Source: Elusimicrobia bacterium RIFOXYA2_FULL_39_19
GTDB taxonomy: Bacteria > Elusimicrobiota > Endomicrobiia > CG1-02-37-114 > XYA2-FULL-39-19
Direction of reading: 5' to 3'
Length of the DNA: 64,000 bases
NCBI GenBank assembly: GCA_001800285.1
Contig: MGVC01000014.1
Coordinates: forward strand, 1,756 to 65,755
The translations under genes and the position numbers were made by a program. This document shows positions 1,201 through 49,424 of this stretch, piece by piece. The notes beneath the pieces were generated by a model. It searched no databases. It was not told the DNA's origin and worked only from the letters and a program-made list of their open reading frames with translations. Positions within the stretch are counted from its first letter, which is position 1. Each line of letters starts with the position of its first letter.

Positions 1201-1929
1201 TTACTTCTTGAATTTTAATTTAATTGTCTTTTCTTCGCCGGCATCTGTTTTTATTTTCATATTAAGCGTCTTTCTTTCTATTTTTATTTCTTCCTGCCAG
1301 CCTCGCTTTCCATCCATTTCATCTTTTTTCACTTCTTCGGGCTGGCCCGGGGCATTGCCACCGGTAGCTGTTGCCTGCTGGTTTTCTTTTACTTCCACTG
1401 AGCCGTATTCATTTTCAAACTGCACTATACCTTTTACTACCATTACGGTGGTATCTCCGTTTTCAGAGACATCCGTATCAAATTCCGTACCGCGCACGCT
1501 GACTACAGCCACGGGTGTTTTTACAGAAAACCTTAACCCGCCGCCTTTTTTTGCCCTTAAACTGCAGGTCCCCTGGCCTTTATTTATTCTTACCGTATCG
1601 GATTTGCCGGGCTCACTGATATCTATTGCAAATTCTGTATTCTGGTTTATTTTAACTTCTGCGCCGTTTGAAAACATGATAGCCGCTTTTGACTTTTTGG
1701 CTGTCCTTAACTTATCACCTTGATATAAAAACATGCCTGATTTTGCTCTCTCCCAAGTCGTTTTACCTTCTCGCTGAACTTCCATCTTACCCATAACCTG
1801 GGTAACCATAGCCGCCACATCTTTTTTAGCAGCATGAACGTCTGTAAGCAGGAAGTGGGAAGTAGTAAGTAGTAATAATAACAAAACAGTGATAAACGGG
1901 TTTAATTTATAATTTTTTAAAAAGTTCAT
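1201..1929 (-). CDS. FecR-domain protein. It has a signal peptide or membrane anchor and a beta-rich FecR-like core (..VAVVSVRGTEFDTDV..).
   Basis: 242-aa ORF with an N-terminal hydrophobic segment. The sequence pattern matches the FecR family (PF04773-like), which are anti-sigma / signal-transducer proteins. Confidence 0.65.
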   Translation of the reverse strand: MNFLKNYKLNPFITVLLLLLLTTSHFLLTDVHAAKKDVAAMVTQVMGKMEVQREGKTTWERAKSGMFLYQGDKLRTAKKSKAAIMFSNGAEVKINQNTEFAIDISEPGKSDTVRINKGQGTCSLRAKKGGGLRFSVKTPVAVVSVRGTEFDTDVSENGDTTVMVVKGIVQFENEYGSVEVKENQQATATGGNAPGQPEEVKKDEMDGKRGWQEEIKIERKTLNMKIKTDAGEEKTIKLKFKK

Positions 1930-18900: not shown

Positions 18901-21900
18901 TATTTCAAGCAGAACATCCTGAATTCTTACGTTATCAATAGAAGTTCCTGTTATGGAAGTAAGGGCTTTATAGGAAGCAGAATTTGCCGGATAGCTTACC
19001 AGAGCTATAGGCGTGCTGATATCAAACACAAAATTTGCAGTGGCATAAACGGTTGAATAATTGCTGGAACTATCTTTTGACCTGGCAACAGCCTGATAAC
19101 TAAAACCGCTTTCAAAAGAAATTACTGAACTATTAAAATCCCAGGCGCTATACGGCTGATTTACGTTATACCAGTTTGAACCAGAAGCGAAAGACGAACC
19201 ATTCCATTCATAACCATCTGCAACACGTACAAATTTAATTTCTGTCTGAGTTACAAGCACATTATCCTGCGCCTGGCCCTGGGTAGAGTTTAATTCTTTT
19301 GTGTAAGAATTATTTGCCGGCGTAGATATTGAAATTGTTGGCGGGGTAAGGTCTTTCTGGGTTTTTGTAGAAGTTGTTACTGAAAATACCGAATCAATGG
19401 AAACACCATTTTTAGCCCTGCCTCTAAAGTAATAATTAGTATCGCCGTCTAAACCATTAAACGTTGTAGTATTACCTGTAAAATTCAGGCCAAACGGTAT
19501 GGGCGTGGATATGTCATTAACAAAATTATCTGATGAAAAAGATATTTCATAAGGAGTTCCATCAGGATTACTATTTTTGCTCCAAGTAAAAGTAATTGAA
19601 GAAAATCCTATATAATTCCAAATCATTGCATCTAAATCCGGGGGGTTGGCAAGTGTATATTGTCCGTTTGAAGGAGCATCTTTTGTACCTAACGGATTGT
19701 ATGTCTGAACATATCTTGAATATGTAGTATTTGGCATGAGATTGGACTCAATAAAATATGTTGTGTTGGATTGAACTGTTCCAATAATACCGCCTGTAGA
19801 AGCAAATACTTTATAGAGCTGCTCATCATCTGCCATGTCAGTCCAGCCCCATTCAATTGAAGCAGCAGATTTTGCGGTTCCCATAAAACCAGCCGCTTGT
19901 GCAAGGATATCATGAATCCAAAACGTTACATTGTTAGGATCTTTTTCATAAGCTATGCCGAAATGCCCGCCGGCAGAATAGGGCATGGCTACATAACCCG
20001 GATATACAAGATTCGGCACATAAACATTTGAGCTTACTGTTGCATCAAAACTGAAATTCGGGAATGTATAGTTAGAAGTGCCGTTTTGCAGCAGAGTCAA
20101 TGCTGATTTGCCGTATTCGCAATTGGTGAATGTTACTGAACTAAAGGCCTGCAGGAAAGAACCGTCAGCTACCGTTATTCCCCTGGAATGGTCCAAGCTT
20201 AAAGCGGTTATGTTAACAGAACCGCCGTTTACGTCAAAGTTAAAATAATTTGTTGAAGCGGTGGAGGTGATAACATCAAGCAATGAATCCGTTTTTACTA
20301 AACCGCCGGGGTACACTGTCAACCCGTCGCCAAGTTCCACAATGCCGGAATTGGAATTTGTCATATCCAGCACACCGCTGTCATTTATATTTACCGGGCC
20401 TACTGCATTGAAAGTTCCTGTTTTTACGTTAAAATTACTGTTTATGTTGCTATATTGAATAACAGTGAGCTTATTGTTGAGCTCAATTTTACCGGAATTA
20501 AACTGAAAATATTTATTAGCCTTTACCGGTTGATTTATTACCAGTTCCTGGCCGGTATTTTTATTTACCTGCACTGAATCAAATACAATGGTTTTTATAC
20601 CGTTAACAGCTGAACTGCTTCCGGCAAACACAAAGGTAGAACCATAAACCGTAAAATCACCGTTTGTATCTAAAGAAACATTGCCGTTTGAAAGGGTTAC
20701 TTTTTTATTGGCAAAATCAAACCAGCCGGTGGTAACCAAAAGCTCTCCTGTAATTTCCAGGTCATTAACTGTGGATACGGCCCAGGTGGAAAGCGACTTA
20801 TTTATATACAGTGATTTTATAGAATAATTAGCGGGCAAATTAAGGCTGACATTATTTTCGTTAATAAAACAGAGGTTCTGGACGTTTAAAACACCCGGAT
20901 TTATCAAGGTAATATTTCCATCAACATTGGTGTTGTTTGAAGTCTGGCGGAAAACGCCGTTTGAAACTGTCAGACTGCCTGTAATATTAATATCCGAAAG
21001 GATAGTTACCGTGCTTTGGTTTACTTTATTTATTTCCAGATTTGAAAAAGTATTAGAGGAATTATTAATTGTCTGATTTCCATTTTTATCTAATATCCAG
21101 GTTCCATTATTTGCAAAAACACCATTCCCCCCTGAATTATTGATATCTCCCCTGAAACTTATAGTTGAGCCGTTTGTGTTTAACCAGCCATAATAAAAAT
21201 TCAGGTTTCCGTTAATTTGAATACGTTTATCCTGTAAAAAAACATTTCTCGTATTAGAAACATCATTGTCAATAAATAAACTATAAAAAGTTGTTCCGGG
21301 CAGGACATTTATGTTTTGATTGTAGAAACTCTTATTTGAAAAGCAGATAGTACTGGTATTTGCCGAAAACATTCCTGCGGTATAGGTTAAATTGCCCTTA
21401 ACTGTTATACTGCTGGCATTTATATTAAAAATTCCGGTACTGATATTTAAGTCATCAATTATGATATTTGTATTTATGTTAACATTTGATGAATAGCCGT
21501 CCTGAATAGAAAATGTGGAAAAGGCAACATTTGAAGGCAAGTCCCAGTCACAATATTTGGTTGGATTAATTGAACCAAAGATTACCGAATCCCCTGATGA
21601 AGGAACTATATCACCTACCCAGTTTAAATTATTGCTTGCAAAATTATCCGCCCCGCCCCCATCCCAGGTATGAACTGTCATATCGGCAGTATAAGTAGTA
21701 GCCGAATTTGAAAGTTCTGACCAATTACCGGCTTTATCCTGGGTCCAGGCTCTGAGATAATATGTAGTTTTTTCAAGCAGATTTGTTACTCTCCAAATCT
21801 GAGGTTCCCCAAAACTTACATTTGCAGTAGATATGGTTATCTGGGCGCTTGTTACGCTCCAGGTTAGGTTTGCGGTATAACTTGCATGCTGAATATTGAA

Positions 21901-24480: not shown

Positions 24481-24591
24481 TATTTCTGTTAAATCCTGCA
24501 AATTTAAATTATATTTTATTTATATACAACAAATTAAAGTAAGAAGTGTAATTAATAATACTATCTGCCCTGGGGTTTATCTACTGTTATA

Positions 24592-24620
24592 GTAATAGCC
24601 CATAAAGGCCTAAAAGTCAA
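24592..24620 (-). promoter_or_regulatory. Candidate sigma70-type promoter for the giant adhesin gene: -35 TTGACT, 17-nt spacer, -10 TATTAC (minus-sense).
   Basis: Plus-strand agtcaa (24615-24620) and gtaata (24592-24597) read in reverse complement as TTGACT-N17-TATTAC, about 110 nt upstream of the ATG. Direct repeats gtgacaaaaatcac / gtgacaaaaaacac lie just upstream, at 24627-24660. Confidence 0.3.
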
Positions 24621-24697
24621 TGGACAGTGACAAAAATCACCTGCTGTGACAAAAAACACGAAAAACTATGAAAAATGCTCTTTTTTGGATATGGTGT

Positions 24698-25567
24698 TTA
24701 CTGAGAAAGAAATGATTTTAATTCGTCGTCTTTGGGGTTTAGCTTAAAAGCTTCGCGCCAAACTTGTATGGCTTTTGATTTTTTATTAAGTGCATAATAA
24801 GCCGACCCTAAACGTTTCATGGCCATAGCATTGGATGGTTCAAGTTCTAAAACACTATTGCATTCTACTATAGCTCTGTCATATTTAGCATCGTAAATAT
24901 AATTTAATGAAGCTACTAATTTCTGTTCTACCAGGGTCATTCCTGGCACAACCTCCACCGCTTTCAGCTGGTTGGGGTACTCTTCTTCAATCACGTTGAC
25001 AAATTTTTCAATCCTACCATCCGAAGGGTTTAACTGGCCTGCATAAATTATGGAATGCAGAGCAGTTTTAAACTTTGCGCTGGGTTTAATGTATTCCCTC
25101 ACAGCAAACCTTATTAATTTGCCGTTTTTTGTTTGAGCTGTTTCATCGCCGAAAGCTTCCTGGATTTTTCTTATTTTACCGTAAAGTTTTTTTAATTCCG
25201 TGTTATTTGGTGAGGTTTCCAGTGCGGTTTTCATATTGCTTAAAGCATCGGTATACCTGCCGGCATTGTAACTTTCCTCAACACTTTTTAGGACTTTGCT
25301 GTATTTTTCCATCAATTTCTGTTTGGCAAATTCTATAAGTTTCGGCGGCTGTACCTGTGTAGGGTCCAGTTTTAAAATCTGTTCCCAGTAAGAAATGGCT
25401 TTGCTGAAATCATTGGCCTGAAAGGACCTTATGGCAGTATCATAGTACGCTTTTATTAAACTCTGTTTTTCTTTTTCTGATAATACTTTTTCCTGCGCAA
25501 AAACATTTGCACCGGTAATTATCGGAATAAGCATAATTGCTAAAAATATTTTAGTTTTTCTTTTCAT
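24698..25567 (-). CDS. Periplasmic TPR-repeat protein with a signal peptide. It overlaps the upstream motB-like gene by 17 nt, which suggests translational coupling.
   Basis: 289 aa with an N-terminal signal peptide (MKRKTKIFLAIMLIPIITGANVFA). It has repeated TPR-like A..Y...G.Y..A helix pairs. Confidence 0.7.
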   Translation of the reverse strand: MKRKTKIFLAIMLIPIITGANVFAQEKVLSEKEKQSLIKAYYDTAIRSFQANDFSKAISYWEQILKLDPTQVQPPKLIEFAKQKLMEKYSKVLKSVEESYNAGRYTDALSNMKTALETSPNNTELKKLYGKIRKIQEAFGDETAQTKNGKLIRFAVREYIKPSAKFKTALHSIIYAGQLNPSDGRIEKFVNVIEEEYPNQLKAVEVVPGMTLVEQKLVASLNYIYDAKYDRAIVECNSVLELEPSNAMAMKRLGSAYYALNKKSKAIQVWREAFKLNPKDDELKSFLSQ

Positions 25568-26243
25568 CTTTTTTATCGCTTTTCCCCTGGCTTCTTAAAA
25601 TACTTATTTCAATTCTTCTATTTTTTGCGCGGCCTTCTTCCGTATCATTGGATTCCAAAGGATGAAACTCGCCGTAACCATAAACAGTAAAACGTTTTGA
25701 ATCTATTTTTTCTTCGTCCATAAGATATTTTATTACGCTAAAAGCCCGGGCTGCGGATAATTCCCAGTTTGAATCATACTTTCCCACTCCGGCTCTTACC
25801 GGAATGTTGTCCGTATAACCTTCTACTACAATATTATTCGGCATGTCCTTTATAATTTTCGCTATGCCTGACAAACTTTTTGCCGCTTCCGGTTTTAAAG
25901 CCGCTTCACCTGAATTATAAAGCACGGGTGCCGGCAGGGATATTTTTATTCTTTGAGAATTAATTTCTATTCTTGCAGTATCCTGCAGTTCGGATGACAA
26001 TTTATTTGCTGCGTCCGATTCTTTTGATTTCTGGCTGGCATCTTCATCTACCTTGCCACCCATGGCTGACTGTACGTTTGAAAGCAGTTTTTCTGACTCC
26101 AGACCCCCCATTGCTGATACGGAGTATAACAATAGGAAGAAGATCATTAAAGTAGTTATCAGGTCAGCATAAGGGACAACCCAACTGGATGGGTCATAAA
26201 GTGCCCTTTTATCTACCTTACCGCCAATATCTCCACCAGACAT
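25551..26243 (-). CDS. motB: MotB/OmpA-family stator protein, paralog 1. It has a single TM with the conserved Asp and a C-terminal peptidoglycan-binding OmpA-like domain.
   Basis: N-terminus ..VVPYADLITTLMIFFLLLY matches the MotB TM/plug region with the essential Asp. The C-terminus ..VVEGYTDNIPV..SNWELSAARA..NRRIEISIL matches the OmpA/MotB peptidoglycan-binding domain. A GAGG Shine-Dalgarno sits 11 nt upstream of the ATG. Confidence 0.8.
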   Translation of the reverse strand: MSGGDIGGKVDKRALYDPSSWVVPYADLITTLMIFFLLLYSVSAMGGLESEKLLSNVQSAMGGKVDEDASQKSKESDAANKLSSELQDTARIEINSQRIKISLPAPVLYNSGEAALKPEAAKSLSGIAKIIKDMPNNIVVEGYTDNIPVRAGVGKYDSNWELSAARAFSVIKYLMDEEKIDSKRFTVYGYGEFHPLESNDTEEGRAKNRRIEISILRSQGKSDKKDEKKN

Positions 26244-26247
26244 AAAT

Positions 26248-26552
26248 AAAACCTCAAGTTTTATTTACCCAGACGCTTTGGTTTTTTAAGCCGCATGGTG
26301 CGGATGAAAAACCAGTCAGGGTATAAAACCTCAATTTCCTTTACCCAGACGTTTTGGTTTTTTAAGCCGCATGGTGCGGATGAAAAACCAGTCAGGGCAT
26401 AAAACCTCAATTTCCTTTACCCAGACGTTTTGGTTTTTTAAGCCGCATGGTGCGGATGAAAAACCAGTCAGGGTATAAAACCTCAATTTCCTTTACCCAA
26501 ACGTTTTGGTTTTTTAAGCCGCATGGTGCGGATGAAAAACCAGTCAGGGTCA
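26248..26552. repeat. Tandem array of four ~76-77-bp direct repeats (>90% identical). Each unit contains an imperfect hairpin: ggtttttt-aag-CCGCA-tgg-TGCGG-atg-aaaaacc.
   Basis: Units begin at 26248, 26325, 26401 and 26477. They are contiguous with no unique spacers. They lie in the 400-bp gap between the two motB paralogs. Unit 1 supplies the Shine-Dalgarno/leader of motB paralog 1. Confidence 0.85.
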
Positions 26553-26573
26553 TAATTTCAAAAAGTGATTAAG

Positions 26574-26640
26574 TGATTAGGTTGTTAAGTGGTTAGTAAA
26601 TTATTTTAACTAAACACTAACCACTTAATCACTATTCACT
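26574..26640. repeat. Imperfect palindrome. The core is a 13-bp perfect inverted repeat, ttaagtggttagt (26586-26598) and actaaccacttaa (26616-26628), with flanking gtgatta direct repeats.
   Basis: Seen directly in the sequence. It lies immediately 3' of the motB paralog 2 stop and 5' of the tandem repeat array. Confidence 0.6.
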
Positions 26641-26645
26641 ATTTT

Positions 26646-27305
26646 TTATCTAATTACATTTATTTCAATTCTTCTGTTTTGTGCCCTGTTTTCGGGTGTA
26701 TCGTTCGGGTAAAGGGGCCTGAACTCGCCATACCCTGCCACTATAAACTTTTCTGACGACATTCCCTTTACTTTGGTAAAATAGTCAATTACACTTACAG
26801 CCCGGGCAATAGACAATTCCCAGTTGGTTGTATATCTCCCCGCTTTTAACGGTATATTATCAGTATGCCCTTCAACAACAACTTTATTGGGCAGTGCTTT
26901 CAGAGACTTGGCTATTTCATCTAATCCCAACGCTGTTTCTTTAGTAATTTCTACTTTACCTGTTTCAAAAAGCACAGGAGAAGTAAGCAGGATACGTATC
27001 ATTTTATCATTAACTTCAAGTTTTGCCAGTTTATCCAGTTTTTCTTTTTCTGAATCCAGCTTGCTTACCGCTTCCTGTTCCTGAATCTGCTTTAAAATTC
27101 TTTGGGCGCGGTCCGTCATGGCGGCATCCTTGCTTACCATGCTGGTTAGGGCAGACTGAATATTAGTTCTTTTGCTTTCATCCATACGGGTAAAAGCATA
27201 GGACATTAGAAAGAACAAAGTCAGGTTTGTAATAATATCCGCATATATTGTCAGCCAGATGGAACTTTGCTGCATTATTCTTACCGGCCGTTTACGTTTT
27301 TTCAT
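26646..27305 (-). CDS. motB: MotB/OmpA-family stator protein, paralog 2.
   Basis: N-terminus ..SSIWLTIYADIITNLTLFFL is a MotB-type TM with the conserved Asp. The C-terminus ..VVEGHTDNIPLKAG..TNWELSIARA..NRRIEINVIR is the OmpA-like domain. Confidence 0.8.
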   Translation of the reverse strand: MKKRKRPVRIMQQSSIWLTIYADIITNLTLFFLMSYAFTRMDESKRTNIQSALTSMVSKDAAMTDRAQRILKQIQEQEAVSKLDSEKEKLDKLAKLEVNDKMIRILLTSPVLFETGKVEITKETALGLDEIAKSLKALPNKVVVEGHTDNIPLKAGRYTTNWELSIARAVSVIDYFTKVKGMSSEKFIVAGYGEFRPLYPNDTPENRAQNRRIEINVIR

Positions 27306-27369
27306 GATTAACGAACAATGTTAGGGGATTAATTTATTGTTTATGGGCAAATAAGTTTGCCCTTATATT

Positions 27370-28149
27370 TTATAACTTGCTGTTAGCCAGCGACTGTTCT
27401 CTTAAGATTGCAGATAAATAACCCTCAAGTTTTTTTGCCGTTATTACAGGCACATCACCTTTATGAATTGAAACAATGCCTTCAGTAATGAGTTCCATGT
27501 TAAGAATTTCATCTTCACTGTATTCAGACAGTTTTACAGCAACGGGTAAAAAAGCAAAATTAGCGGCAAATATGCCGAAAAATGTAGCAGCCACAGCTGT
27601 TGCCATAGCGGCACCCATGGAAGTAGGGTCGGTAATATTTCTTAATACCTGCACAACACCCAGCAGGGTTCCCAGCAATCCGAAAATAGGCGCTACAGTA
27701 GCCATCATTCTAAATACGCTGGCAACTTTCTGATGCCTTTCTCTTACGTACAAAATTTCTTTTTCCAGATTGTCTTCGATAATGTCTATATCGTAACCGT
27801 CTATGAGCATTTGCAGGGCATTTCTAAAGAACTTGTCTTTTAATCCGGCTACTTCAGGCTGGAGGCCGGAAAACCCTGAACGTTTGGATTTTTCTGAAAG
27901 GCCTACAACAAGTTCTATCATTCTCAAAGATGATTCTCTTTTATTTGGGAAGAAAGCCAGACTGAAAGCCTTAGGTATGGCTTTGATAGTTGTCCAGGGA
28001 TAAGCAATGAGAGTAGAGGAAAGAGTACCTATTACAACCAGCAGAAACGCATCAAGATTAAACAACATATGCACAATTTCACCGCGCGCCATGACTATGT
28101 AAATTGCAACTACTCCGATAATTGCTCCGCCAACCGTTAACAAATCCAT
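27370..28149 (-). CDS. motA: MotA/PomA-family proton-channel stator protein. It has four TM segments with a large cytoplasmic loop between TM2 and TM3.
   Basis: 259 aa. The TM1-TM2 pair sits at the N-terminus. A ~100-aa charged loop (..RESSLRMIELV..) follows. Conserved prolines are present in TM3 (TVAPIFGLLGT) and TM4 (AFLPVAV), as in MotA. A GGGGGA Shine-Dalgarno lies upstream. Confidence 0.85.
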   Translation of the reverse strand: MDLLTVGGAIIGVVAIYIVMARGEIVHMLFNLDAFLLVVIGTLSSTLIAYPWTTIKAIPKAFSLAFFPNKRESSLRMIELVVGLSEKSKRSGFSGLQPEVAGLKDKFFRNALQMLIDGYDIDIIEDNLEKEILYVRERHQKVASVFRMMATVAPIFGLLGTLLGVVQVLRNITDPTSMGAAMATAVAATFFGIFAANFAFLPVAVKLSEYSEDEILNMELITEGIVSIHKGDVPVITAKKLEGYLSAILREQSLANSKL

Positions 28150-28171
28150 TTATTTTCCCCCAAAAATATTT

Positions 28172-29608
28172 TTAAATAAGTTCAATTATGCCTTCGGCAT
28201 TTAATTTTCTTATGCTTTCAATAACCCGGCGTTTTTCTTCGATGATTCTTTGTGCTGATAAAGGTTTACCCAACTCCATTTCCTGTTGAAGCCTTTTTCT
28301 GCCGGCTTCAGTAAGCGCTTCCATGATTTTTGCTGTATATTGTTCCGGCATGGTTTTAAGAATCTGCGCAAAAGCTGAAAGATTTATCCTGCGCATAACG
28401 GTTTGCAGAGTTTCACCGCTGAAATTGACTATATCCTCAAAACTGAAGACGGATTTCATTAATTTGGCTGCAAGGGGCGGATTCTTGGCCTTAAAATTAG
28501 CAATGATTTTGTCCTGAGTTGCTTTATCGCTGTAATCAAGCAGTTTAACAAGTATTTCATCACCGCCAAGAGAATAATTAAGGGTGTCTCTAACTTTCTG
28601 TTCAAGGGATTTTACAGCGTCAGGGTCCATCTGTTTCACGTTTGAAAATAATTCGGATACTTTCATTTTCTGATCCGCATTTAAATCAGCAAACAACTTG
28701 GAAGCCATATCTCTGTCAATGTAATTTAGAATTACCGCTATGTTTTCAGAACTTTCTGTTTTAATTGATTCTCTTAACTGATTTATTTCCTGAGGGACAA
28801 TAAACCAGAATGGTTTTCTGTTTTCACTATCGTGAGATAAAGATGCAGTCTGAGCTGACGCAGTTTCTACGGAAGTTGACTGCTGGTTTTGCGCGCCAAA
28901 ATCCTGACTTGAAGTGTTTGCTTCTTTTTGGGCCGCTACCAGTCCGGCAATAACTTCTACCAGGCTTTTTGAAAATATTTTAAATGGATTGAACAAAAAC
29001 AATACTGAGCCGAAAACAAAAAATGTTGCAAGGGCAATTATAATAACCCAGTATAGATTAGGCGGATAAAGCAGAGAATACCAGTAAAAAGGATTTTGTT
29101 TAAAATTCATTCTTTCAATTATCAGCTGGTCCCCGCGGGTTTCATCGATACCCAGTAACCCGAAAGCCACTTTTTTCATAATTTCTATCACGCTTGCGGA
29201 GACAGCTTTATCAACTATAATGGTTGCACTGATTTTCTTTATGGCGGTTTTTGTTTTTCCTATATCCAGCGGCGCTAATAAATCCTCTATTTTTCTTTCT
29301 CCGATATTTTCTTTAACAGGCACTCCTGGCAGTACCATTTTAGGCCGTTCATCAACAGTTTTAATCTGAAGTTCCTTTTTTTCTTTTTCACTGTACATCT
29401 CTGTATTGATGATAATGATAATTTTTTCCGTACCGGCAATTTCAGTAAGAACCTTTCTTAACCTGTCTTCCAGGCTTGTTTCTATCTGGATTTTTGTTTC
29501 AATACTGGTTTCGGCAATATCCGCCGCAAAGATTTGTTTGGGAGCCTGAAAAACCAACAATGAAGCAAAAATAAATAGCGCCACGAACTGATAAAACCTT
29601 TTTTTCAT
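28172..29608 (-). CDS. Membrane-anchored protein with FliG middle + C-terminal-like (FliG_MC / MgtE_N-like) domains. It has a signal peptide, a ~170-aa N-terminal domain and a central TM segment; the FliG-like region is C-terminal and presumably cytoplasmic.
   Basis: The C-terminal ~230 aa align to the FliG M and C domains. The segment NIAVILNYIDRDMASKLFADLNADQKMKVSELF matches the EHPQ-region ARM repeat. The segment ..KLMKSVFSFEDIVNFSGETLQTVMRRIN..LAFAQILKTMPEQYTAKIMEALTEAGRKRLQQEMELGKPLSAQRIIEEKRRVIESIRKLNAEGII resembles the FliG_C MFvFEDI..D..iq.vlrev...LalALkg...elrek....mskRaaemlkedle.lgpvrl.dve.aq..I. Signal peptide is MKKRFYQFVALFIFASLLVFQA. TM is VIIIALATFFVFGSVLFLF. An AGGAGA Shine-Dalgarno is present. 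Confidence 0.7.
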   Translation of the reverse strand: MKKRFYQFVALFIFASLLVFQAPKQIFAADIAETSIETKIQIETSLEDRLRKVLTEIAGTEKIIIIINTEMYSEKEKKELQIKTVDERPKMVLPGVPVKENIGERKIEDLLAPLDIGKTKTAIKKISATIIVDKAVSASVIEIMKKVAFGLLGIDETRGDQLIIERMNFKQNPFYWYSLLYPPNLYWVIIIALATFFVFGSVLFLFNPFKIFSKSLVEVIAGLVAAQKEANTSSQDFGAQNQQSTSVETASAQTASLSHDSENRKPFWFIVPQEINQLRESIKTESSENIAVILNYIDRDMASKLFADLNADQKMKVSELFSNVKQMDPDAVKSLEQKVRDTLNYSLGGDEILVKLLDYSDKATQDKIIANFKAKNPPLAAKLMKSVFSFEDIVNFSGETLQTVMRRINLSAFAQILKTMPEQYTAKIMEALTEAGRKRLQQEMELGKPLSAQRIIEEKRRVIESIRKLNAEGIIELI

Positions 29609-29686
29609 AATTTTCTCCTAATGTCTTTATATATTATTTATTGTGTAACTTTTCAAATATTTTGCGCTTTCTTCCAGTAGAGCAGC

Positions 29687-29715
29687 ATTTATATACATAC
29701 CAGACCCAATTTCAA
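29687..29715 (-). promoter_or_regulatory. Candidate promoter for the fliG-like/motA/motB operon: TTGAAA-N17-ATAAAT (minus-sense).
   Basis: Plus-strand tttcaa (29710-29715) and atttat (29687-29692). It sits in the 125-bp gap upstream of the fliG-like start at 29608. Confidence 0.3.
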
Positions 29716-29733
29716 GACTGGCCATATTTCTGA

Positions 29734-30009
29734 CTATTCCATAATTTTGAAATTGCTGGTGTCTTCCGGAATTAAAGCAGGGAATTTGTTTGGTACTACC
29801 CTTACTTTCCAGCCAAAGGAATCTTTGACAGCGTATTTATCTATTGATGGTATATTTTCATTGCCCATGCAAAAAGGGCATTCTGACAGGTATGAAGGTA
29901 AGTCTTTTTTTACTATTTTTTTATCTGAAAAATCTTTCGGTCTTTTTGCTCTTTCGGTAGCGATAATAACCCATTCTCTTACTGCTATATTCTGTCTGAG
30001 TTGAGGCAT
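29734..30009 (-). pseudogene. N-terminal fragment (91 aa) of a galactose-1-phosphate uridylyltransferase (GalT/HIT-like) family gene. It is truncated after the zinc-binding CPFC region.
   Basis: The fragment ..REWVIIATERAKRP...CPFCMGNE...VVPNKFPAL matches the GalT N-terminus. Full-length members are ~320 aa and carry a downstream HxH active site. Here the ORF stops after 91 aa, and no continuation exists in any frame before the next gene. Confidence 0.45.
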
Positions 30010-30153
30010 AAAACCCCTTAATAGTTATGAGTTTTAGAGCACTTGAAGGTATATTCTATATATCATTTTATTTATCAAAAAACAACGTTTTTTTAATAAT
30101 TATAATGATTTAAACCGTGCAGGCTCATTTCAAATGGGTGTTTTTCCTTAAAC

Positions 30154-30182
30154 TTGACAAAATATATATGAAATGATAGAAT
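30154..30182 (+). promoter_or_regulatory. Candidate sigma70 promoter P2 upstream of tRNA-Glu: TTGACA-N17-TAGAAT.
   Basis: Exact -35 hexamer at 30154-30159. The -10 is at 30177-30182. It lies ~110 nt upstream of the tRNA. Confidence 0.4.
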
Positions 30183-30258
30183 ACGGAATTACAAAATTCT
30201 GAGAACATTTAGTAATTTTTTTGAATTTTCGCTCTTTTGGATGTATGTTATCTGAAAC

Positions 30259-30286
30259 TTGAGATTTGAAATTTGAAATCTATAAT
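30259..30286 (+). promoter_or_regulatory. Candidate sigma70 promoter P1 immediately upstream of tRNA-Glu: TTGAGA-N16-TATAAT.
   Basis: A consensus -10 TATAAT at 30281-30286 sits 4 nt before the tRNA 5' end. The -35-like hexamer is at 30259-30264. Confidence 0.5.
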
Positions 30287-30290
30287 TCAC

Positions 30291-30362
30291 GCCCCCATCG
30301 ACTAGCGGTTAGGTCATCGCCCTTTCAAGGCGGTAACACCAGTCCGAATCTGGTTGGGGGCG
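30291..30362 (+). tRNA. tRNA-Glu (anticodon UUC), 72 nt, no encoded CCA.
   Basis: Cloverleaf folded by hand. Acceptor GCCCCCA/TGGGGGC. Anticodon stem TCGCC/GGCGG with loop CTTTCAA. T-arm ACCAG-TCCGAAT-CTGGT. The overall sequence is close to bacterial tRNA-Glu(UUC). A T-run follows. Confidence 0.85.
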
Positions 30363-30485
30363 TTTTTTTATTTTTATAGGCTACCGCCGCAGAAAGGCGA
30401 TACGCCCTTTCAAGGGTTGCAATGCGACGAATAAGGAGCATTGGCTGCAACGGGTTCGAGACGGTGAGAACCCTGGGCCGAAGGC

Positions 30486-30709: not shown

Positions 30710-31630
30710 TTAATTTTTCGGAAGAAAATCTATCTGGAAAGTTACTCTGTGGGATAACCCTAAATCTGAATGCGGAATGTAGGCATAATCCAGCTTTACC
30801 GGACTGAAATTAAGCCCGAAACCTGCCGACAGACTGCTTGTCTGCTGGTAAACCCCGCCAAATCTGAAGGCAATATATTTGTTTGCAGAAACTTCAAAAC
30901 CAAGCCCTAATTTCATCTTTGAATCATTTTCCTGAACAATATCAAAAGAAGAATTGTAGCCTTTTGACATAAAACCCGTACCCGCTCTGATAGTAAAAGG
31001 AAGCAAAGAACCCCTGATTTTTGAACCGATATTCTGTACCACAATGCCTGAGGTGTTGCCGGATCTTGAATTTCTATAGTACAAACCTGCGTCAAAAGCA
31101 GCTACAGATGCGCTGTTTTTGTTTAACTCTTCATTTATATATTTTACAGATACACCTATCTTGATTGACCTGCTGTCTTCGCGATAAGGCATATTATGGG
31201 AATATCCCAGCACTACCAGTGTATCTCTAAGGCTTATTGCCGTACCTTCTGTAATAACATCATTTACTACAGACCGTTGAAAATCACTGATGCCTAAATT
31301 TGTTATACCAAAACCCAGGGCATTTTCTCCTGAACTAAAAACAGCTAATACCGTATTGGCGGATATGTCGCCATAGATGAGCGCCTGCGAAAAAGAATAT
31401 TGAGAACCCTGCACGTTTGATAAACCGGCAGGATTATATTCAAGCGCGGATACATCATCTGAAATTGCTGTAAAATTACCCGCCATTCCCTGTGCTCTTG
31501 CTGTGTAACCAATTTTTAGAAACGGAACAGCGGAAATACCGGCCGTTCTTACAAGCTCTTCTGCAAACAAACCGGCATTAAAAAACAAAACAGAATAAAT
31601 GATATAAAATAGTCTGAAATATATTTTCAT
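30710..31630 (-). CDS. Outer-membrane beta-barrel of the PorV/PorQ (FadL-like, T9SS-associated) family.
   Basis: 306 aa with a signal peptide. The N-terminal motif ..TARAQGMAGNFTAISDDVSALEYNPAGLSNV matches the G.GGAFTAvADDASAiyYNPAGL signature of PorV/PorQ-type proteins. The rest has beta-barrel-like alternating hydrophobicity and a C-terminal aromatic residue. It is adjacent to a T9SS-CTD cargo gene. Confidence 0.55.
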   Translation of the reverse strand: MKIYFRLFYIIYSVLFFNAGLFAEELVRTAGISAVPFLKIGYTARAQGMAGNFTAISDDVSALEYNPAGLSNVQGSQYSFSQALIYGDISANTVLAVFSSGENALGFGITNLGISDFQRSVVNDVITEGTAISLRDTLVVLGYSHNMPYREDSRSIKIGVSVKYINEELNKNSASVAAFDAGLYYRNSRSGNTSGIVVQNIGSKIRGSLLPFTIRAGTGFMSKGYNSSFDIVQENDSKMKLGLGFEVSANKYIAFRFGGVYQQTSSLSAGFGLNFSPVKLDYAYIPHSDLGLSHRVTFQIDFLPKN

Positions 31631-31633
31631 AAA

Positions 31634-33193
31634 TTATCTTGCAATCATTAATTTGCCTTTTACTTTGCCTTTATCGGTTTCTGCTACATACAAATACACA
31701 CCATCAGAAACCAGTTCACCGGTGTCATTTTTGCCGTCCCATTCTGCGCTGGTAGGATAATCAGGTTCAATGGTCCTTACCTGTTGGCCGGCCAGATTAT
31801 AAATACGAACCGTCAGGGACACGCCTTTCAAATTATCTGAAAGATAAATTCTTGTTGTCTGGCCGTTTGCTGGATTAAAAGGATTTGGTGAGTTTACTGC
31901 TACGCTTTCTTTAACAACTGCAGGGACTGTATAACCTACGGCAGAAGCCGCATTTATTAAACCATAACCTGTATATAAATCCTTGCCGGGAGTATCTAAA
32001 TCAATGGCGGTACTGGTAATTTTTTCATAAACGCTGGCAAAAGTTGCATTTGGTTCATAAGAAAAAATAAGTGCTACCACACCGGCCACGAAAGGCGATG
32101 CCATGGAAGTTCCATCCGAATATTCATAACCGTCTGAATGCCATATATCCATAGAATCATTCCCAAGGCCGCCTGGATTAGTAGGAGGAACTGTACTATA
32201 AATTTCAACACCGGGAGCCATTATATCAAGCTCAGAACCGTAATTCGAAAAACCGGCCCGCTGGTTTTCTGAATCAGAAGCACCTACCGCAATAGCATGT
32301 GGTAAAGCCGCTGGGAACATTACAAAATCATTTGTCGGATCCCCGTCATCGGCAAAATTTCCCGCCGCCGCAATACAAATAACTCCATTATTATAGGCAT
32401 AATCTATGGCTATCCGTTCAAGGTTCGACAGCATTTCACCGCCAAGGCTCATATTAATTACCTTTGCTCCCGCATCAACTGCATAGGGTACACAGCTTGA
32501 AATTGCTATTGATGCACCGGAGCCTTCATTATCGAGCGCCTTGATAGGTATAAGCCTTGCGCCCCAGCTTACACCAGCTACGCCTCTGTTATTATTTGTC
32601 ATGGCGGATATTATTCCCGCTACGTGAGTTCCGTGGCCATTATCATCCATAGCATCTGAATCATCATTTACAAAATCATAGCCTAAAGAAGTGTCAACGC
32701 TGCCGGCTAAATCCGGGTGCAGATAATTTATTCCCGTATCTATTATGGCTACTTTAACACTCCAACTAGCCTTGGTTATTTCCCAGGCTGATGGGCAATC
32801 AATTTTTTTTACTCCCCATTGGCTATTATATGAGGTATCATTTGGTATAACAAACATTTTCCTTATGTAATTCGGCTCGGCAAATTCCACTTCCGGCTGA
32901 TGGCTGTAATATTCAAGAGCTGTTTCCACGCTCATGTTATCAGACAGAGTAACAACCTCAGCGTTAAACTTTTCTAAACCACCTTTGTTTTGATGGTTCA
33001 TTTTGCTTAACATGCCCTTTTTCTGTGCTTTAGTTGTGCCTTGCTTGTAGACAACAACTATTTCATCTTTTACAACTTCTACGCTTTTATTTAATTTTTG
33101 TGAATAGAAACGGCTTTTCTGCATAGCAGGTAAACTGCAGGTTAAAAACAGGATGGAAAAAAACAGGATAGGTCCAGCAAGGTTCTTTTTCAA
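31634..33193 (-). CDS. Subtilisin-like S8 serine protease with a T9SS type-A C-terminal sorting domain.
   Basis: A signal peptide is present. The catalytic triad motifs are AIIDTGI (Asp), HGTHVAG (His) and GTSMASPFVAG (Ser). The C-terminal ~80 aa are ..SPNPFNPANGQTTRIYL..LTVRIYNLAGQQVRTI..WDGKNDTGELVSDGVYLYVAETDKGKVKGKLMIAR, a canonical Por_Secre_tail. Confidence 0.85.
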   Translation of the reverse strand: MKKNLAGPILFFSILFLTCSLPAMQKSRFYSQKLNKSVEVVKDEIVVVYKQGTTKAQKKGMLSKMNHQNKGGLEKFNAEVVTLSDNMSVETALEYYSHQPEVEFAEPNYIRKMFVIPNDTSYNSQWGVKKIDCPSAWEITKASWSVKVAIIDTGINYLHPDLAGSVDTSLGYDFVNDDSDAMDDNGHGTHVAGIISAMTNNNRGVAGVSWGARLIPIKALDNEGSGASIAISSCVPYAVDAGAKVINMSLGGEMLSNLERIAIDYAYNNGVICIAAAGNFADDGDPTNDFVMFPAALPHAIAVGASDSENQRAGFSNYGSELDIMAPGVEIYSTVPPTNPGGLGNDSMDIWHSDGYEYSDGTSMASPFVAGVVALIFSYEPNATFASVYEKITSTAIDLDTPGKDLYTGYGLINAASAVGYTVPAVVKESVAVNSPNPFNPANGQTTRIYLSDNLKGVSLTVRIYNLAGQQVRTIEPDYPTSAEWDGKNDTGELVSDGVYLYVAETDKGKVKGKLMIAR

Positions 33194-48514: not shown

Positions 48515-48601
48515 CGGAGAGGGCGAGATTCGAACTCGCGCTCCGGAAAACCGAAGACTGGTTTTCGAGACCAGCGGTTTCAACCGCTCACCCACCTCTC
48601 C
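48515..48601 (-). tRNA. tRNA-Ser (anticodon CGA), class II with a long variable arm, 87 nt, no encoded CCA.
   Basis: Hand-folded. Acceptor GGAGAGG/CCTCTCC. Anticodon stem CTGGT/ACCAG with loop CTCGAAA. Variable arm CTTCGG-tttt-CCGGAG. T-arm GCGAG-TTCGAAT-CTCGC. Discriminator G. Near-identical in layout to E. coli serU. Confidence 0.85.
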
Positions 48602-49341: not shown

Positions 49342-49424
49342 GGGCGCGTGGCGGAATGGCAGACGCGTTAGGTTCAGGACCTAATAATCTCACGATTGTG
49401 GAGGTTCAACTCCTCTCGCGCCCA
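49342..49424 (+). tRNA. tRNA-Leu (anticodon CAG), class II, 83 nt.
   Basis: Acceptor GGGCGCG/CGCGCCC. D-arm GTGGCGGAATGGCAGACGCG as in bacterial tRNA-Leu. Anticodon stem TTAGG/CCTAA with loop TTCAGGA. Long variable arm. T-arm GGAGG-TTCAACT-CCTCT. Discriminator A. Confidence 0.8.

Follow-up and report, generated by a model that had tools for sequence, protein, structure and literature searches.

What might a FliG-like protein do when it is anchored in a membrane and encoded away from any recognizable flagellum? Canonical FliG is soluble and cytoplasmic, and its gene lies among fliF, fliH, fliM and fliN, whereas the protein considered here (hereafter FG) carries a predicted signal peptide and TM helix and has only MotA and MotB as flagellar neighbours. 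It is encoded in a 64-kb stretch of DNA (the window) from Elusimicrobia bacterium RIFOXYA2_FULL_39_19, in an ORF that appears in the ORF list exactly as given in a preliminary description made from the sequence alone (Table 1), and gene calling on independent metagenome contigs gave the identical 478-aa protein. Judged from its sequence and fold, FG is a flagellar rotor core in one polypeptide, and its operon appears to be a flagellar motor core pared to essentials and put to another use in the cell envelope.

The extent of the family became apparent only upon an exhaustive profile search. A word-indexed homologue search returned merely 15 relatives, and the notion of a tiny family was overturned by a profile search of 1.84 billion representatives, which yielded at least 150 matches, nearly all of them full-length. 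All but one of the named members among the matches listed belong to Elusimicrobiota. In what follows, residue and domain counts refer to 79 family representatives and locus counts to 13 loci of the subfamily found in the window.

Table 1. Coordinates of FG, its domains and the surrounding genes in the window.
Feature	Position	Strand	Evidence or remark
OMP640, N-terminal part	1..1119	(-)	Cut by window edge; profile of 7 orthologues, hmmsearch E 2.5e-97
Secreted FecR/DUF7354-domain protein, 242 aa	1201..1929	(-)	Accessory; Pfam
Secreted CarboxypepD_reg-domain protein, 523 aa	2202..3773	(-)	Accessory; Pfam
Giant secreted surface protein, 6863 aa	3910..24501	(-)	ORF and signal peptide; association looser, only some lineages
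Secreted TPR protein, 289 aa	24698..25567	(-)	TPR Pfam; signal peptide in sequence; overlaps motB2 stop by 17 nt
MotB2, second MotB paralogue	25551..26243	(-)	MotB_plug 43.3 bits, OmpA 76.2 bits
MotB1	26646..27305	(-)	MotB_plug 30.8 bits, OmpA 76.8 bits; plug, TM Asp and OmpA-like peptidoglycan-binding domain
MotA, flagellar-stator type, 259 aa	27370..28149	(-)	MotA_ExbB E 3.1e-26; starts 22 nt downstream of FG
FG gene	28172..29608	(-)	ATG start, 478 aa; ORF list and Pfam FliG_C, FliG_M, YscJ_FliF_C
FG, FliG C-terminal domain, residues 372-477	28178..28495	(-)	Pfam FliG_C; torque helix residues ~434-446 (nt 28271..28309)
FG, FliG middle (ARM_M) domain, residues 277-343	28580..28780	(-)	Pfam FliG_M; degenerate EHPQR site (ESSE)
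FG, disordered low-complexity linker (predicted cytoplasmic), residues ~233-263	28820..28912	(-)	pLDDT <50; poor conservation, variable length
FG, single TM helix, residues ~184-207	28988..29059	(-)	Kyte-Doolittle; within helix 184-233 of AlphaFold model
FG, RBM3-like ring-building domain (predicted periplasmic), residues ~31-170	29099..29518	(-)	alpha-beta-beta-alpha-beta; homologous to FliF RBM3
FG, predicted Sec-type signal peptide, residues 1-28	29525..29608	(-)	Hydropathy, AxA-like motif; helix 2-28 in model
PorV/PorQ-family outer-membrane barrel	30710..31630	(-)	NF033709 120 bits vs cut-off 90

Domain architecture of FG

Along its chain, FG has a predicted signal peptide, then a domain assigned to the periplasm, a single TM helix, a linker predicted to be disordered and finally the FliG middle and C-terminal domains. 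That it contains the last two had been noticed at the outset, and this is borne out by Pfam, by alignment to a PDB sequence and by fold. FliG_C (PF01706) matches residues 372-477 with an E-value of 1.6e-18 (67.4 bits against a cut-off of 23.3) and FliG_M (PF14841) matches residues 277-343 with an E-value of 9.9e-11 (42.2 bits against 25), the former being found in all 79 representatives and the latter in 78. The crystal structure of Thermotoga maritima FliG_MC (1lkv) could be aligned to residues 265-475 (E 5.4e-19), and ranks 1-13 of a Foldseek search of FG against the PDB are all FliG. In the alignment, the motif SVFSFEDIV pairs with MFVFEDIL of T. maritima FliG and the charged helix AGRKRLQQEMELGKP with its torque helix KRAAALLKDELEYMGP, as had been surmised. 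The Gly-Gly hinge is conserved as well (75 and 76 of 79 representatives). The site first described as 'EHPQ-like' fared less well, since only its Glu is kept in the family (51/79), while the His, Gln and Arg positions of this FliM-binding EHPQR motif are unconserved and the window protein reads ESSE.

The FliF-binding N domain is missing from FG, in agreement with the preliminary description. The match to TIGR00207 (FliG) is confined to positions 95-325 of the model and scores 82.9 bits, the cut-off being 226.7; the Pfam match to FliG_N (residues 287-357) is a cross-match sitting on FliG_M, and the stretch between the TM helix and FliG_M has only ~60 residues, most of them disordered. The place of FliG_N, and that of the FliF C-terminal peptide, is occupied by the linker.

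The N-terminal domain, first put at ~170 aa, had been left without a name and the N-terminus taken for a mere tether standing in for the FliF-binding domain, and here the analysis leads elsewhere: profile, motif and fold comparisons identify this ~150-aa domain as homologous to RBM3, the third ring-building motif of FliF, which belongs to the S-ring/collar region. Pfam YscJ_FliF_C (PF08345) matches 54 of the 79 representatives; in distant members the match is full-length and above cut-off (e.g. 36.1 bits), while in the window FG it is marginal (23.6 bits, just below the cut-off of 23.8). A profile of the domain has as its top PDB match a FliF chain (E 0.017, positions 11-137), and both end in the RGD...F motif that closes the RBM3-like domain of FG. 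An insert at the FliF beta-collar position (residues 72-120), modelled with low confidence, carries an invariant LPGVP motif, and several positions of the domain are nearly or fully conserved (P94 in 79/79 representatives, G95 in 77, E43 in 76 and D160 in 74). The PDB chains matched by this domain derive from 33-35-mer rings, while the FG models are of a monomer. No match to RBM1-RBM2 (SctJ-like, YscJ_FliF PF01514) was found in FG at E <= 1, nor any RBM1 or RBM2 remnant upstream of it in the ORF list or with Pfam, and the ~150 residues of the mature periplasmic region are wholly filled by one RBM and the insert. By sequence and by fold alike, the significant PDB matches of FG are to FliG and FliF only.

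Two hydrophobic segments are present, of which the first resembles a cleavable signal peptide, with an n-region MKKR, a hydrophobic h-region and QIFA-AD, an AxA-like motif being found in most homologues. Residues 1-28 are thus predicted to be either a Sec signal peptide or an N-terminal anchor equivalent to FliF TM1. The second segment has a peak of 2.8 in a Kyte-Doolittle window of 19 residues and is found in 16/16 aligned homologues, in support of a membrane anchor with the FliG part in the cytoplasm. The topology that hydropathy and the known topology of FliF together suggest is one in which the N-terminal domain would be periplasmic and FliG_M and FliG_C cytoplasmic.

FG is thus best described, from its sequence, as a natural mini FliF–FliG fusion devoid of RBM1, RBM2 and FliG_N, the FliF-binding domain being presumably missing because FliF itself is fused on. 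Since the fused part derives from FliF, FG probably makes its own MS-ring-like rotor, and a loose torque-helix adaptor for some unrelated partner, as first envisaged, is less likely. An artefact of gene calling, in which the 3' end of fliF would have been joined to fliG, was considered and rejected, because the same 456-500-aa architecture recurs in more than 100 independent clusters and on independent contigs. Searches of the accessible literature found no description of a natural RBM3-FliG_MC fusion, the nearest being chlamydial and engineered fusions.

The operon, its stator genes and its surroundings

The stator encoded beside FG is of the flagellar type by sequence, with a MotA channel domain, a large cytoplasmic loop and plug-bearing MotBs. 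The top NCBIfam matches of MotA are all flagellar MotA, PomA or MotP, with equivalog scores all below cut-offs (196 against 340), so that it falls into no named orthologue group, and full-length PDB alignments to flagellar MotA and PomA range from 9e-46 (9lu9) to 1e-36. In both MotB1 and MotB2, MotB_plug and OmpA score above cut-off. The TM Asp is kept in 10/10 orthologues of MotB1; in MotB2 it is present in the window and replaced by Asn in 4/9 orthologues in which the TM region was read.

The position of motA directly downstream of FG, already remarked upon, extends to every homologue examined in the subfamily: the order FG–MotA–MotB1–MotB2 is seen in 13/13 loci with downstream DNA, down to 24-25% identity. 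A fifth member of the operon, the TPR gene, is conserved as well, being found downstream in 11 of the 12 loci with enough DNA. In a second subfamily, motA is linked to FG in 2/3 loci examined and FlbD adjoins MotA. A scan for promoters and terminators (24300..30400) returned nothing above shuffled expectation, and an Rfam scan of the whole window returned three tRNAs and nothing else.

Torque-helix charges are given here in what we take to be E. coli numbering, anchored on the T. maritima alignment and on published rotor–stator pairings. These pairings are MotA R90 with FliG D289 and MotA E98 with FliG R281 (PMC12505986). A comparison of these residues, suggested in the preliminary description, has a mixed outcome. 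The equivalents of K264 (Lys or Arg in 61/79 representatives) and D289 (Glu in 13/13 loci and 68/79 representatives) are kept, that of D288 is Glu in 41/79 and Gln in 38/79, and those of R281 (Gly, Ala or Val in 13/13 loci; Gly or Ala in 75/79 representatives and basic in none) and R297 (mostly Ser, Thr or Pro, 63/79, neither Lys nor Arg appearing in the residues listed) are lost. All in all, three of the five classical charges are unconserved. On the stator side, the equivalent of MotA R90 is kept in 13/13 loci, while that of E98 is Gln, Thr, Ser or Ala in 13/13. As read from these alignments, the changes at the rotor–stator interface match, the D289–R90 pair being kept and the R281–E98 pair lost on both sides. 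Beyond this family-wide pattern, a search for charge compensation between MotA and FG in individual loci (e.g. L012) gave nothing convincing.

Around the operon lie genes for secreted and surface proteins, and these accessory genes vary by locus. OMP640 is a ~640-aa secreted protein with a signal peptide and a C-terminal ...SYSF that has no match in Pfam, NCBIfam or the PDB, and which we infer to be a putative outer-membrane beta-barrel from its signal peptide and C-terminal aromatic residue; its orthologues adjoin the operon in eight loci (L007-L011, L013, L016 and L020). Those of both the CarboxypepD_reg and the FecR/DUF7354 proteins do so in five (L007, L008, L013, L016 and L020). The giant protein displays weak similarity to T9SS C-terminal domains (Por_Secre_tail, 17.7 bits against a 23-bit cut-off) and has relatives adjoining the operon in L006, L007, L008, L009 and L010, and another giant protein, of 8833 aa, adjoins FG in L023. 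None of the accessory genes is within reach in L001, L004 and L005. The PorV/PorQ barrel gene, which shares the strand of FG and lies 1.1 kb upstream of it, is possibly linked to the operon, since the arrangement recurs in the close relative L006, the only other locus of the subfamily to have it. Loci of the second subfamily (L022-L024) have, directly upstream of FG and overlapping its start, a gene for a PorV/PorQ barrel fused with a TPR protein, and the operon TPR protein is homologous to the C-terminal half of these fusions. Some family members also have a TPR fused at their C-terminus.

A possible rotary motor and its rivals

How could such a set of proteins work? On balance, we favour a rotor that would assemble itself into a ring, be turned by a stator anchored to peptidoglycan and be coupled to components of the outer membrane or the cell surface. 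The signal peptide would export the N-terminal domain (an RBM3 homologue with its collar-position insert), the TM helix would cross the membrane and FliG_M and FliG_C would lie in the cytoplasm. Fusing FliF to FliG imposes a 1:1 stoichiometry, so that neither FliG_N nor the FliF C-terminal peptide would be needed. RBM3 of FliF makes 33-35-mer rings and, by analogy, the periplasmic domains of FG are expected to assemble into a ring lying against the outer side of the inner membrane, so that the FliG_MC domains would be arranged in a ring in the cytoplasm. In flagella, FliG_N, FliM and FliN stabilize the FliG ring; since they are absent here, ring geometry may differ. The flagellar-type MotA and two plug-bearing, OmpA-anchored MotB paralogues would form ion-driven stator units fixed to peptidoglycan, and the cytoplasmic loops of MotA would push on the FliG_C torque helix, turning the ring, as homology, operon conservation and one retained charge pair suggest.

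The output would probably leave via the periplasmic face of the ring, since genes for an export gate, a rod, a hook, FliM and FliN are all missing near FG. The co-encoded secreted TPR protein might receive it and pass it to OMP640, PorV/PorQ-like barrels and surface proteins, in a machine that would span the envelope and move or handle surface proteins, its output being gliding-like or T9SS-like, a speculative scheme that stems from guilt by association. The variability of the accessory genes and the restriction of the PorV linkage to the window and L006 leave this output side weakly supported. In its most specific form, that of a non-flagellar rotary motor in which a FliF(RBM3)-FliG(MC) ring spun by MotA/MotB is coupled by the TPR protein to PorV/PorQ-like and OMP640 barrels and to giant sorting-domain adhesins, the proposal is tentative and rather doubtful.

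Of the other readings, the one that survives best, although we consider it unlikely, is that FG is a non-rotary force transducer or scaffold, which would oligomerize by its RBM without spinning while ion flow through MotA/MotB drives conformational work on FG and, via FG, on periplasmic partners, according to a logic nearer to that of ExbBD-TonB or TolQR-TolA (e.g. in envelope maintenance or secretion gating). The missing torque-helix charges would fit, as would the absence of an axle, a bearing, FliM and FliN, the loss of the proton-binding Asp of MotB2 in several lineages, and partners (TPR proteins and outer-membrane barrels) that are typical of Tol-Pal or Ton-like systems. However, MotA is of the flagellar clade with its large torque-generating loop, the MotBs have the flagellar plug, and the stator's partner is none other than FliG_C, the D289-R90 pair being kept. 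Moreover, RBM3 of FliF is a former of high-order rings, and a MotA pentamer turning on a FliG_C ring amounts to rotation unless the ring is held.

Is FG instead an unconventional part of a real flagellum, whose other genes would lie elsewhere and in which FliF and FliG would be replaced or supplemented? All recognizable domains of FG are indeed flagellar, and the gene order FlbD-MotA-MotB, seen beside the second subfamily, occurs in flagellated spirochetes and Firmicutes. Yet FG has no RBM1 and RBM2, which house the export gate and rod in FliF, its FliM-binding site is degenerate, and its conserved neighbours are secreted envelope proteins. Besides FG, MotA and MotB, no other flagellar genes were found among the window ORFs scanned, and in ~300 kb of flanking DNA from 17 distinct loci none were found except FlbD, MotA and MotB, a non-flagellar gene context. 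Complete flagellar gene sets do occur in a few Elusimicrobiota, but most free-living ones are reported to lack flagellar structural genes while possessing motAB, flbD and fliG (bioRxiv 10.1101/2022.07.08.499144), and flagellar genes have also been reported as absent in Elusimicrobia (PMC7031533). Participation in a flagellum is hence, in our view, highly improbable.

More improbable still is that the operon is a functionless, decaying relic of a lost flagellum. It would suit a mostly non-flagellated phylum and the loss of some canonical functional residues, but is at odds with the intact FG ORFs of at least 150 clusters (50% identity), a five-gene order held down to 24% identity, strong conservation of N-terminal-domain positions (P94, G95, D160 and E43), changes in MotA and FG that match each other, and the gain of new fusions (the C-terminal TPR and the PorV/PorQ-TPR protein). 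Finally, the idea of a magnesium-sensing protein of the MgtE_N type with no relation to a motor can be set aside as having next to no likelihood, since the MgtE_N matches (E <= 1e-3 in 46/79 members, 20.0 bits in the window FG against a cut-off of 25.9) are sub-threshold cross-matches always much weaker than those of FliG_C and FliG_M on the same residues, Pfam finds no CBS or MgtE membrane domain in FG, and both the MotA linkage in every locus of the window's subfamily and the significant PDB matches point to the motor.

Significance and comparison with known systems

To our knowledge, torque generation by FliG and MotA has so far been described only inside flagella. The literature searches likewise returned no description of a FliG-dependent non-flagellar motor, the fliG and motAB of Elusimicrobiota being mentioned in passing only. 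Should the rotary reading be correct, FG would represent the first FliG-MotA torque generation outside the flagellum, and the surface machine that it powers in Elusimicrobiota would be gliding-like or T9SS-like. A conserved and widespread module in which only a FliF ring piece, a FliG torque piece and a stator are retained would demonstrate that this core is able to act independently. The module also explains the reported occurrence of fliG, motAB and flbD in non-flagellated Elusimicrobiota (bioRxiv 10.1101/2022.07.08.499144). With one rotor gene and three stator genes, it would offer a naturally minimal set-up in which to study how a rotor assembles and how torque is transferred, and such a natural minimal rotor would be relevant to the evolution or reduction of the flagellar motor core, bearing on whether this core predates, or can outlive, the export apparatus and axial structures. 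If PorV/PorQ barrels and giant adhesins are truly linked to it, the module would moreover provide a new means of powering the movement or secretion of surface proteins.

Among the closest parallels is the flagellar MS-ring/C-ring core of FliF and FliG itself. FG shares with it an RBM3-type ring domain, a TM helix, FliG_M and FliG_C, the Gly-Gly hinge and the torque helix and, as in a core with MotA5B2, is encoded beside a flagellar-type MotA and plug-bearing, OmpA-anchored MotB, with the R90/D289 pair kept. Unlike flagellar FliF, it has no RBM1, RBM2 or FliF C-terminal peptide, and a signal peptide instead of a clear TM1; unlike flagellar FliG, it has a short disordered linker instead of FliG_N, a degenerate FliM-binding site and no equivalents of R281 and R297. 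Its loci also differ from those of the flagellar motor in the absence of export apparatus, rod, hook, filament, FliM and FliN nearby, in the presence of two MotB paralogues per MotA, in partners that would be a secreted TPR protein and outer-membrane barrels, and in the largely non-flagellated phylum in which they occur.

Fusions of FliF to FliG have precedents. Full-length ones, engineered or spontaneous, are known in Salmonella and Vibrio (e.g. PDB 8z4d; PMC11481574), and FG has the same 1:1 stoichiometry. In non-flagellated bacteria, the Chlamydiaceae fusion (CT719-type, ~330 aa) similarly joins, by nature, a shortened FliF to a FliG-like domain. It consists of an RBM2-like domain and one further RBM, with no SpoIIIAG-like RBM3 and only a FliG_M-like segment (Bergeron 2016, PMC4768692), whereas FG has RBM3, FliG_M and FliG_C including the torque helix, and is encoded with MotAB. 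The NCBIfam model of the chlamydial fusion (NF004606) accordingly scores only 19.9 bits over 44 residues of FG, against a cut-off of 297. The ring-building-motif proteins SpoIIIAG and SctJ/PrgK/EscJ are also among the closest known systems.

On the output side, the comparison is with the ion-driven inner-membrane motors of the MotAB family, i.e. GldLM/PorLM (T9SS and gliding), AglRQS-Glt of Myxococcus, ExbBD-TonB and TolQR-TolA. Like these 5:2 motors, the stator of the FG system appears to have periplasmic TPR proteins, barrels of the outer membrane and very large adhesins of the cell surface as partners and, as in the T9SS, barrels of the PorV/PorQ family and proteins with T9SS-type C-terminal domains are encoded nearby. 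We know of no non-flagellar 5:2 motor that uses FliG or an MS-ring-like rotor. In contrast to the FG system, these motors use A and B subunits outside the flagellar clade and deliver force through the periplasmic B-like subunit or TonB/TolA, whereas FG would pair a flagellar-type stator with a cytoplasmic FliG_C partner.

FG joins a FliF ring-building domain to the FliG middle and C-terminal domains

The open reading frame of the preliminary description is confirmed and encodes, from an ATG start, the 478-residue protein FG; a protein identical to it has also been called on independent groundwater metagenome contigs. Its C-terminal half had been read as homologous to the middle and C-terminal domains of FliG, and this holds since Pfam assigns residues 277–343 to FliG_M (E 9.9e-11) and 372–477 to FliG_C (E 1.6e-18), residues 265–475 match the Thermotoga maritima FliG_MC crystal structure (1lkv, E 5.4e-19) and FliG occupies ranks 1–13 throughout when the AlphaFold model is searched with Foldseek. 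Residues 250–474 align to positions 95–325 of the TIGR00207 (fliG) model and, because this match begins at model position 95, FliG_N is not covered. In the alignment to T. maritima FliG, the motif SVFSFEDIV and the charged helix AGRKRLQQEMELGKP, both singled out from the sequence, fall opposite MFVFEDIL and the torque helix, respectively. The FliG Gly-Gly hinge is conserved in 75 and 76 of the 79 aligned family representatives. The site of the reported 'EHPQ-like' repeat can be located, but the FliM-binding EHPQR motif is degenerate, in keeping with the lack of FliM and FliN. An MgtE_N identity was rejected as a sub-threshold cross-match (20.0 versus 25.9 bits).

The membrane features recognized earlier also stand. 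FG begins with what looks like a typical signal peptide (MKKR followed by a hydrophobic core and QIFA/AD, with an AxA-like site in most homologues) and a single strong transmembrane (TM) segment at about residues 184–207, while residues 233–263 form a low-complexity linker of low model confidence. The ~170-residue N-terminal domain does exist, but its nature had been left open, and it is homologous to the third ring-building motif (RBM3) of FliF. The Pfam model YscJ_FliF_C is marginal in FG itself (residues 119–169, 23.6 versus 23.8 bits), full-length and above cut-off in more distant relatives (36.1 bits over model positions 1–147 of 147 in P0053, 32 bits in P0158), and matches 54 of the 79 representatives (lowest E 6.6e-12). 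The top PDB match of a profile of this domain was FliF chain 9yh6 from a 34-subunit ring (E 0.017, positions 11–137), with which it shares a terminal RGD...F motif, and SpoIIIAG was also matched. The AlphaFold models show the order alpha(35–58)-beta(63–71)-[insert 72–120]-beta(123–133)-alpha(138–152)-beta(161–167), which is a predicted ring-building-motif fold with the insert at the position of the FliF beta-collar. When the full-length model was used for a fold search, FliG and FliF-RBM3 were the only two families with good scores. FG is a natural fusion of a signal peptide, FliF-RBM3, a TM helix, a short linker, FliG_M and FliG_C, devoid of RBM1, RBM2, the FliF C-terminal peptide and FliG_N. 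Its most conserved positions among the 79 representatives fall in the putatively periplasmic domain (P94 in 79, G95 in 77, E43 in 76, D160 in 74, P97 and R158 in 70 each), and an invariant LPGVP loop lies in the collar-position insert.

A conserved operon in a non-flagellar gene context

A word-indexed search returned 15 relatives of 456–491 aa, of which those with a named source are Elusimicrobia. When 1.84 billion cluster representatives were searched exhaustively with a profile, 9180 matched at E <= 1e-3, of which 448 reached E <= 1e-30; nearly all of the best 150 of the 9180 cover the profile end to end, and much of the low-scoring tail is presumably canonical FliG. Named entries of the family read 'FliG C-terminal domain-containing protein [Elusimicrobiota bacterium]', and all 12 FG loci found by scanning species-representative genomes belong to Elusimicrobiota. 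One family member, P0168 (RLE71917.1), comes from a contig of 4.9 kb that was assigned to a 'Thermoprotei archaeon' bin, probably a binning error rather than an archaeal occurrence because its envelope domains are bacterial. In the alignment, 22 of the 79 representatives have TPR repeats attached behind FliG_C, where they would be cytoplasmic, and some members reach 700–800 aa through extensions without a Pfam match (P0139, 796 aa; P0099, 713 aa).

The linkage to motA, noted from the window, is borne out: motA starts 22 nt downstream of FG, and the order FG-MotA-MotB1-MotB2 is found in 13/13 first-subfamily loci with downstream DNA, the window counted. First-subfamily loci besides the window are L001, L004–L013, L016 and L020, in which identity to the window FG falls to 24–25%. 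Of the 12 loci that reach far enough, 11 have a secreted TPR gene next. The recurrent neighbours, which all have signal peptides, are OMP640 (a protein of ~640 aa taken as an outer-membrane beta-barrel from its C-terminal aromatic residue), a CarboxypepD_reg protein, a FecR/DUF7354 protein and giant proteins. OMP640 is also near the operon in L007–L011, L013, L016 and L020, the CarboxypepD_reg and FecR/DUF7354 pair recurs in L007, L008, L013, L016 and L020, and relatives of the window's giant protein flank the operon in L006–L010; L023 has a giant protein of 8833 aa. In L007, eight genes (CarboxypepD_reg, FecR, FG, MotA, MotB1, MotB2, TPR and OMP640) are packed together in one orientation, and several of them overlap or are minimally spaced. 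The PorV/PorQ and S8 peptidase genes form a pair close upstream of the window's FG; this pair recurs in L006, and similar genes are present in L022. Elusimicrobiota are not usually counted among the lineages bearing a type 9 secretion system (T9SS). The scanned window ORFs and the annotated flanks yielded no further flagellar gene, apart from FlbD in the second subfamily.

Coordinates of FG, its neighbours and other features (in the window unless a locus is given)
Feature	Position	Strand	Remarks
OMP640	1..1119	-	window edge; ~640 aa; ends ...SYSF; E 2.5e-97
FecR/DUF7354 protein	1201..1929		Pfam
CarboxypepD_reg protein	2202..3773		Pfam
Giant surface protein	3910..24501	-	6863 aa; secreted; directly downstream of the operon's TPR gene
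TPR gene	24698..25567	-	
motB2	25551..26243	-	
76-nt tandem repeat	26246..26555		4.1 copies; 96% match
motB1	26646..27305	-	
motA	27370..28149	-	259 aa
FG	28172..29608	-	478 aa
GalT fragment	29734..30009	-	91 aa
tRNA gene	30291..30362	+	adjoins GalT fragment
PorV/PorQ-family outer-membrane protein	30710..31630	-	NF033709, 120 bits versus cut-off 90
S8 peptidase	31634..33193	-	T9SS type A sorting domain, 27.8 versus 23 bits
DnaA-ATPase protein	38181..39875	-	564 aa; E 2e-72
tRNA gene	48515..48601		
tRNA gene	49342..49424		
Phage-integrase-family gene	50860..51843		327 aa
PorV/PorQ-TPR fusion	L022 8407..9972		
PorV/PorQ-TPR fusion	L023 8451..10004		
PorV/PorQ-TPR fusion	L024 8353..9987		
Lytic transglycosylase (SLT)	L020 8865..9894		just upstream of FG
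Lytic transglycosylase (SLT)	L004 8111..8602		just upstream of FG

The second subfamily (L022–L024) is characterized by C-terminal TPR repeats behind FliG_C. In 3/3 loci examined, the gene immediately 5' of FG encodes a PorV/PorQ barrel (residues ~32–309; NF033709, 122–137 bits versus a cut-off of 90) fused to a homologue of the window's TPR protein, and in L023 this gene overlaps the start of FG by 4 nt. FlbD-MotA-MotB, with a single MotB, is near FG in two of the three loci (L023 and L024). A coiled-coil or unknown protein of 830–1190 aa is encoded downstream of FG in this subfamily.

Several other features of these loci deserve mention. SBBP beta-propeller repeats are present in the L009 and L010 relatives of the 6863-residue protein, the C-terminus of which bears a weak likeness to a T9SS sorting domain (Por_Secre_tail, 17.7 bits versus a 23-bit cut-off). 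The similarity of the window's GalT fragment to galactose-1-phosphate uridylyltransferase is confined to the N-terminal part of that enzyme, so that the fragment is apparently what is left of a truncated gene; L004 has a full 333-aa GalT at the same position upstream of FG. The SLT gene occurs in two distant loci, and a stand-alone, divergent gene for a CheY-like receiver domain adjoins FG in L020 and L021; the former could be a peptidoglycan-remodelling helper and the latter a regulator of the FG module. Elsewhere in the window, the DnaA-ATPase protein, for which no further DnaA domain was reported at E <= 1e-5, is adjoined by a RecJ-like nuclease with an extra RNase_T domain. The integrase-family gene lies within ~2.5 kb of two tRNA genes, ahead of genes for topoisomerase I and DprA; it could be the mark of an integrated element or encode a XerC/D-type recombinase.

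A flagellar-type stator and its predicted interface with FG

MotA can be aligned over its whole length with structures of flagellar MotA and PomA (E 9e-46 to 1e-36) and its top NCBIfam matches are flagellar stator models only, every score being under the equivalog cut-off; MotB1 and MotB2 both have the flagellar plug and the OmpA-like domain above cut-off. Interface residues were mapped via T. maritima FliG and Bacillus subtilis MotA (R90 and E98 numbered as in E. coli), with E. coli FliG numbers that we take to correspond to the FG positions. In the canonical interface, MotA R90 pairs with FliG D288/D289 and E98 with R281 (quoted in PMC12505986). The preliminary description had proposed that the torque helix be compared at these FliG residues. 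The equivalent of D289 is indeed acidic (E443; Glu in 13/13 loci and 68/79 representatives), but the charge of R281 is lost (A435; Gly, Ala or Val in 13/13 loci, basic in 0/79 representatives) and D288 is replaced by Gln or Glu (Q442; Gln in 12/13 loci, Glu in 41/79 and Gln in 38/79 representatives). The counterpart of K264 (K418) is Lys or Arg in 13/13 loci and 61/79 representatives, and that of R297 (S451) is Ser, Thr, Asn or Pro in 13/13 loci, never basic. On the MotA side, R90 is Lys or Arg in 13/13 loci, usually within a dibasic K/R-R, and E98 is Gln, Thr, Ser or Ala in 13/13, never acidic, with Asp or Glu two residues on in 12/13. One canonical charge pair is thus kept on both partners and the other lost on both, and, at the level of sequence, this concordance is the strongest hint that the operon MotA acts on the FliG_C of FG.

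In every first-subfamily locus reaching far enough, one MotA gene is followed by two MotB paralogues. When their orthologues were compared (window, L001, L004–L009, L011, L013, L016 and L020), the TM residue corresponding to E. coli D32 was always Asp in MotB1, and in MotB2 it was Asn in 4/9 orthologues with the TM region read (L001, L007, L008 and L011). This pattern suggests either that MotB1 and MotB2 pair into a heterodimer with only one proton site or that the role of MotB2 is structural. The motB1-motB2 spacer of the window is unusually long, 402 nt versus 7–100 nt in relatives, and is filled by the 76-nt repeat array. Each unit is predicted to form a stable hairpin (-27.4 kcal/mol, z -4.25) and carries a copy of the Shine-Dalgarno-like GGAAATTGAGG found 5' of motB2; the unit does not occur anywhere else in the window.

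A putative rotary module and its relation to known systems

It is, in our view, virtually certain that Elusimicrobiota encode a natural FliF-RBM3-FliG_MC fusion, within a conserved operon that also specifies a flagellar-type stator. By analogy with FliF and FliG, the RBM domain would be periplasmic and FliG_MC cytoplasmic. FliF RBM3 forms 33–35-mers, and the PDB chains matched by the RBM3 region of FG derive from 33–35-mer rings; FG may likewise build a ring through this domain, with a 1:1 ring of FliG_MC beneath it, that would be turned by peptidoglycan-anchored, ion-driven units of the MotA5B2 type. As a mechanism, rotation of such a ring is the most economical, and we give it slightly better than even chances. 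An envelope or surface output is a lead that we regard as less likely than not. Speculatively, the periplasmic face of FG, including the LPGVP loop, might engage the secreted TPR protein, which might in turn be joined to barrels in the outer membrane and to surface proteins; for a link between the TPR protein and an outer-membrane barrel, the second subfamily provides a Rosetta-stone-type argument in the PorV/PorQ-TPR fusion encoded beside FG. The output could then be a gliding-like movement of adhesins, or the handling of surface proteins with C-terminal sorting domains.

Flagellar genes have been reported as absent in Elusimicrobia (PMC7031533), and most free-living members of the phylum were reported, in a preprint on magnetotactic Elusimicrobiota, to be without flagellar structural genes and yet to possess motAB, flbD and fliG, whose role was unclear (10.1101/2022.07.08.499144). 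Our literature search found no description of the FG architecture or module in the searchable literature, and the sole natural FliF-FliG fusion it found was that of Chlamydiaceae, which keeps an RBM2-like domain, has no SpoIIIAG-like RBM3 and includes only a FliG_M-like piece, in organisms not thought to be flagellated (PMC4768692). The architecture of FG is different, and the NCBIfam model of the chlamydial fusion matches just 44 of its residues. Compared with FliG, FG has no FliG_N, scores under the equivalog cut-off, has a degenerate EHPQR motif and is membrane-bound, and it is therefore not a full member of that family; nor is it a full FliF, as it has neither RBM1 nor RBM2. Clearly, FG employs the same parts as both. 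The non-flagellar 5:2 motors GldLM, AglRQS, ExbBD and TolQR, none of which is known to us to use FliG or an MS-ring-like rotor, share with the putative module the principle of energizing the outer membrane from the inner one.
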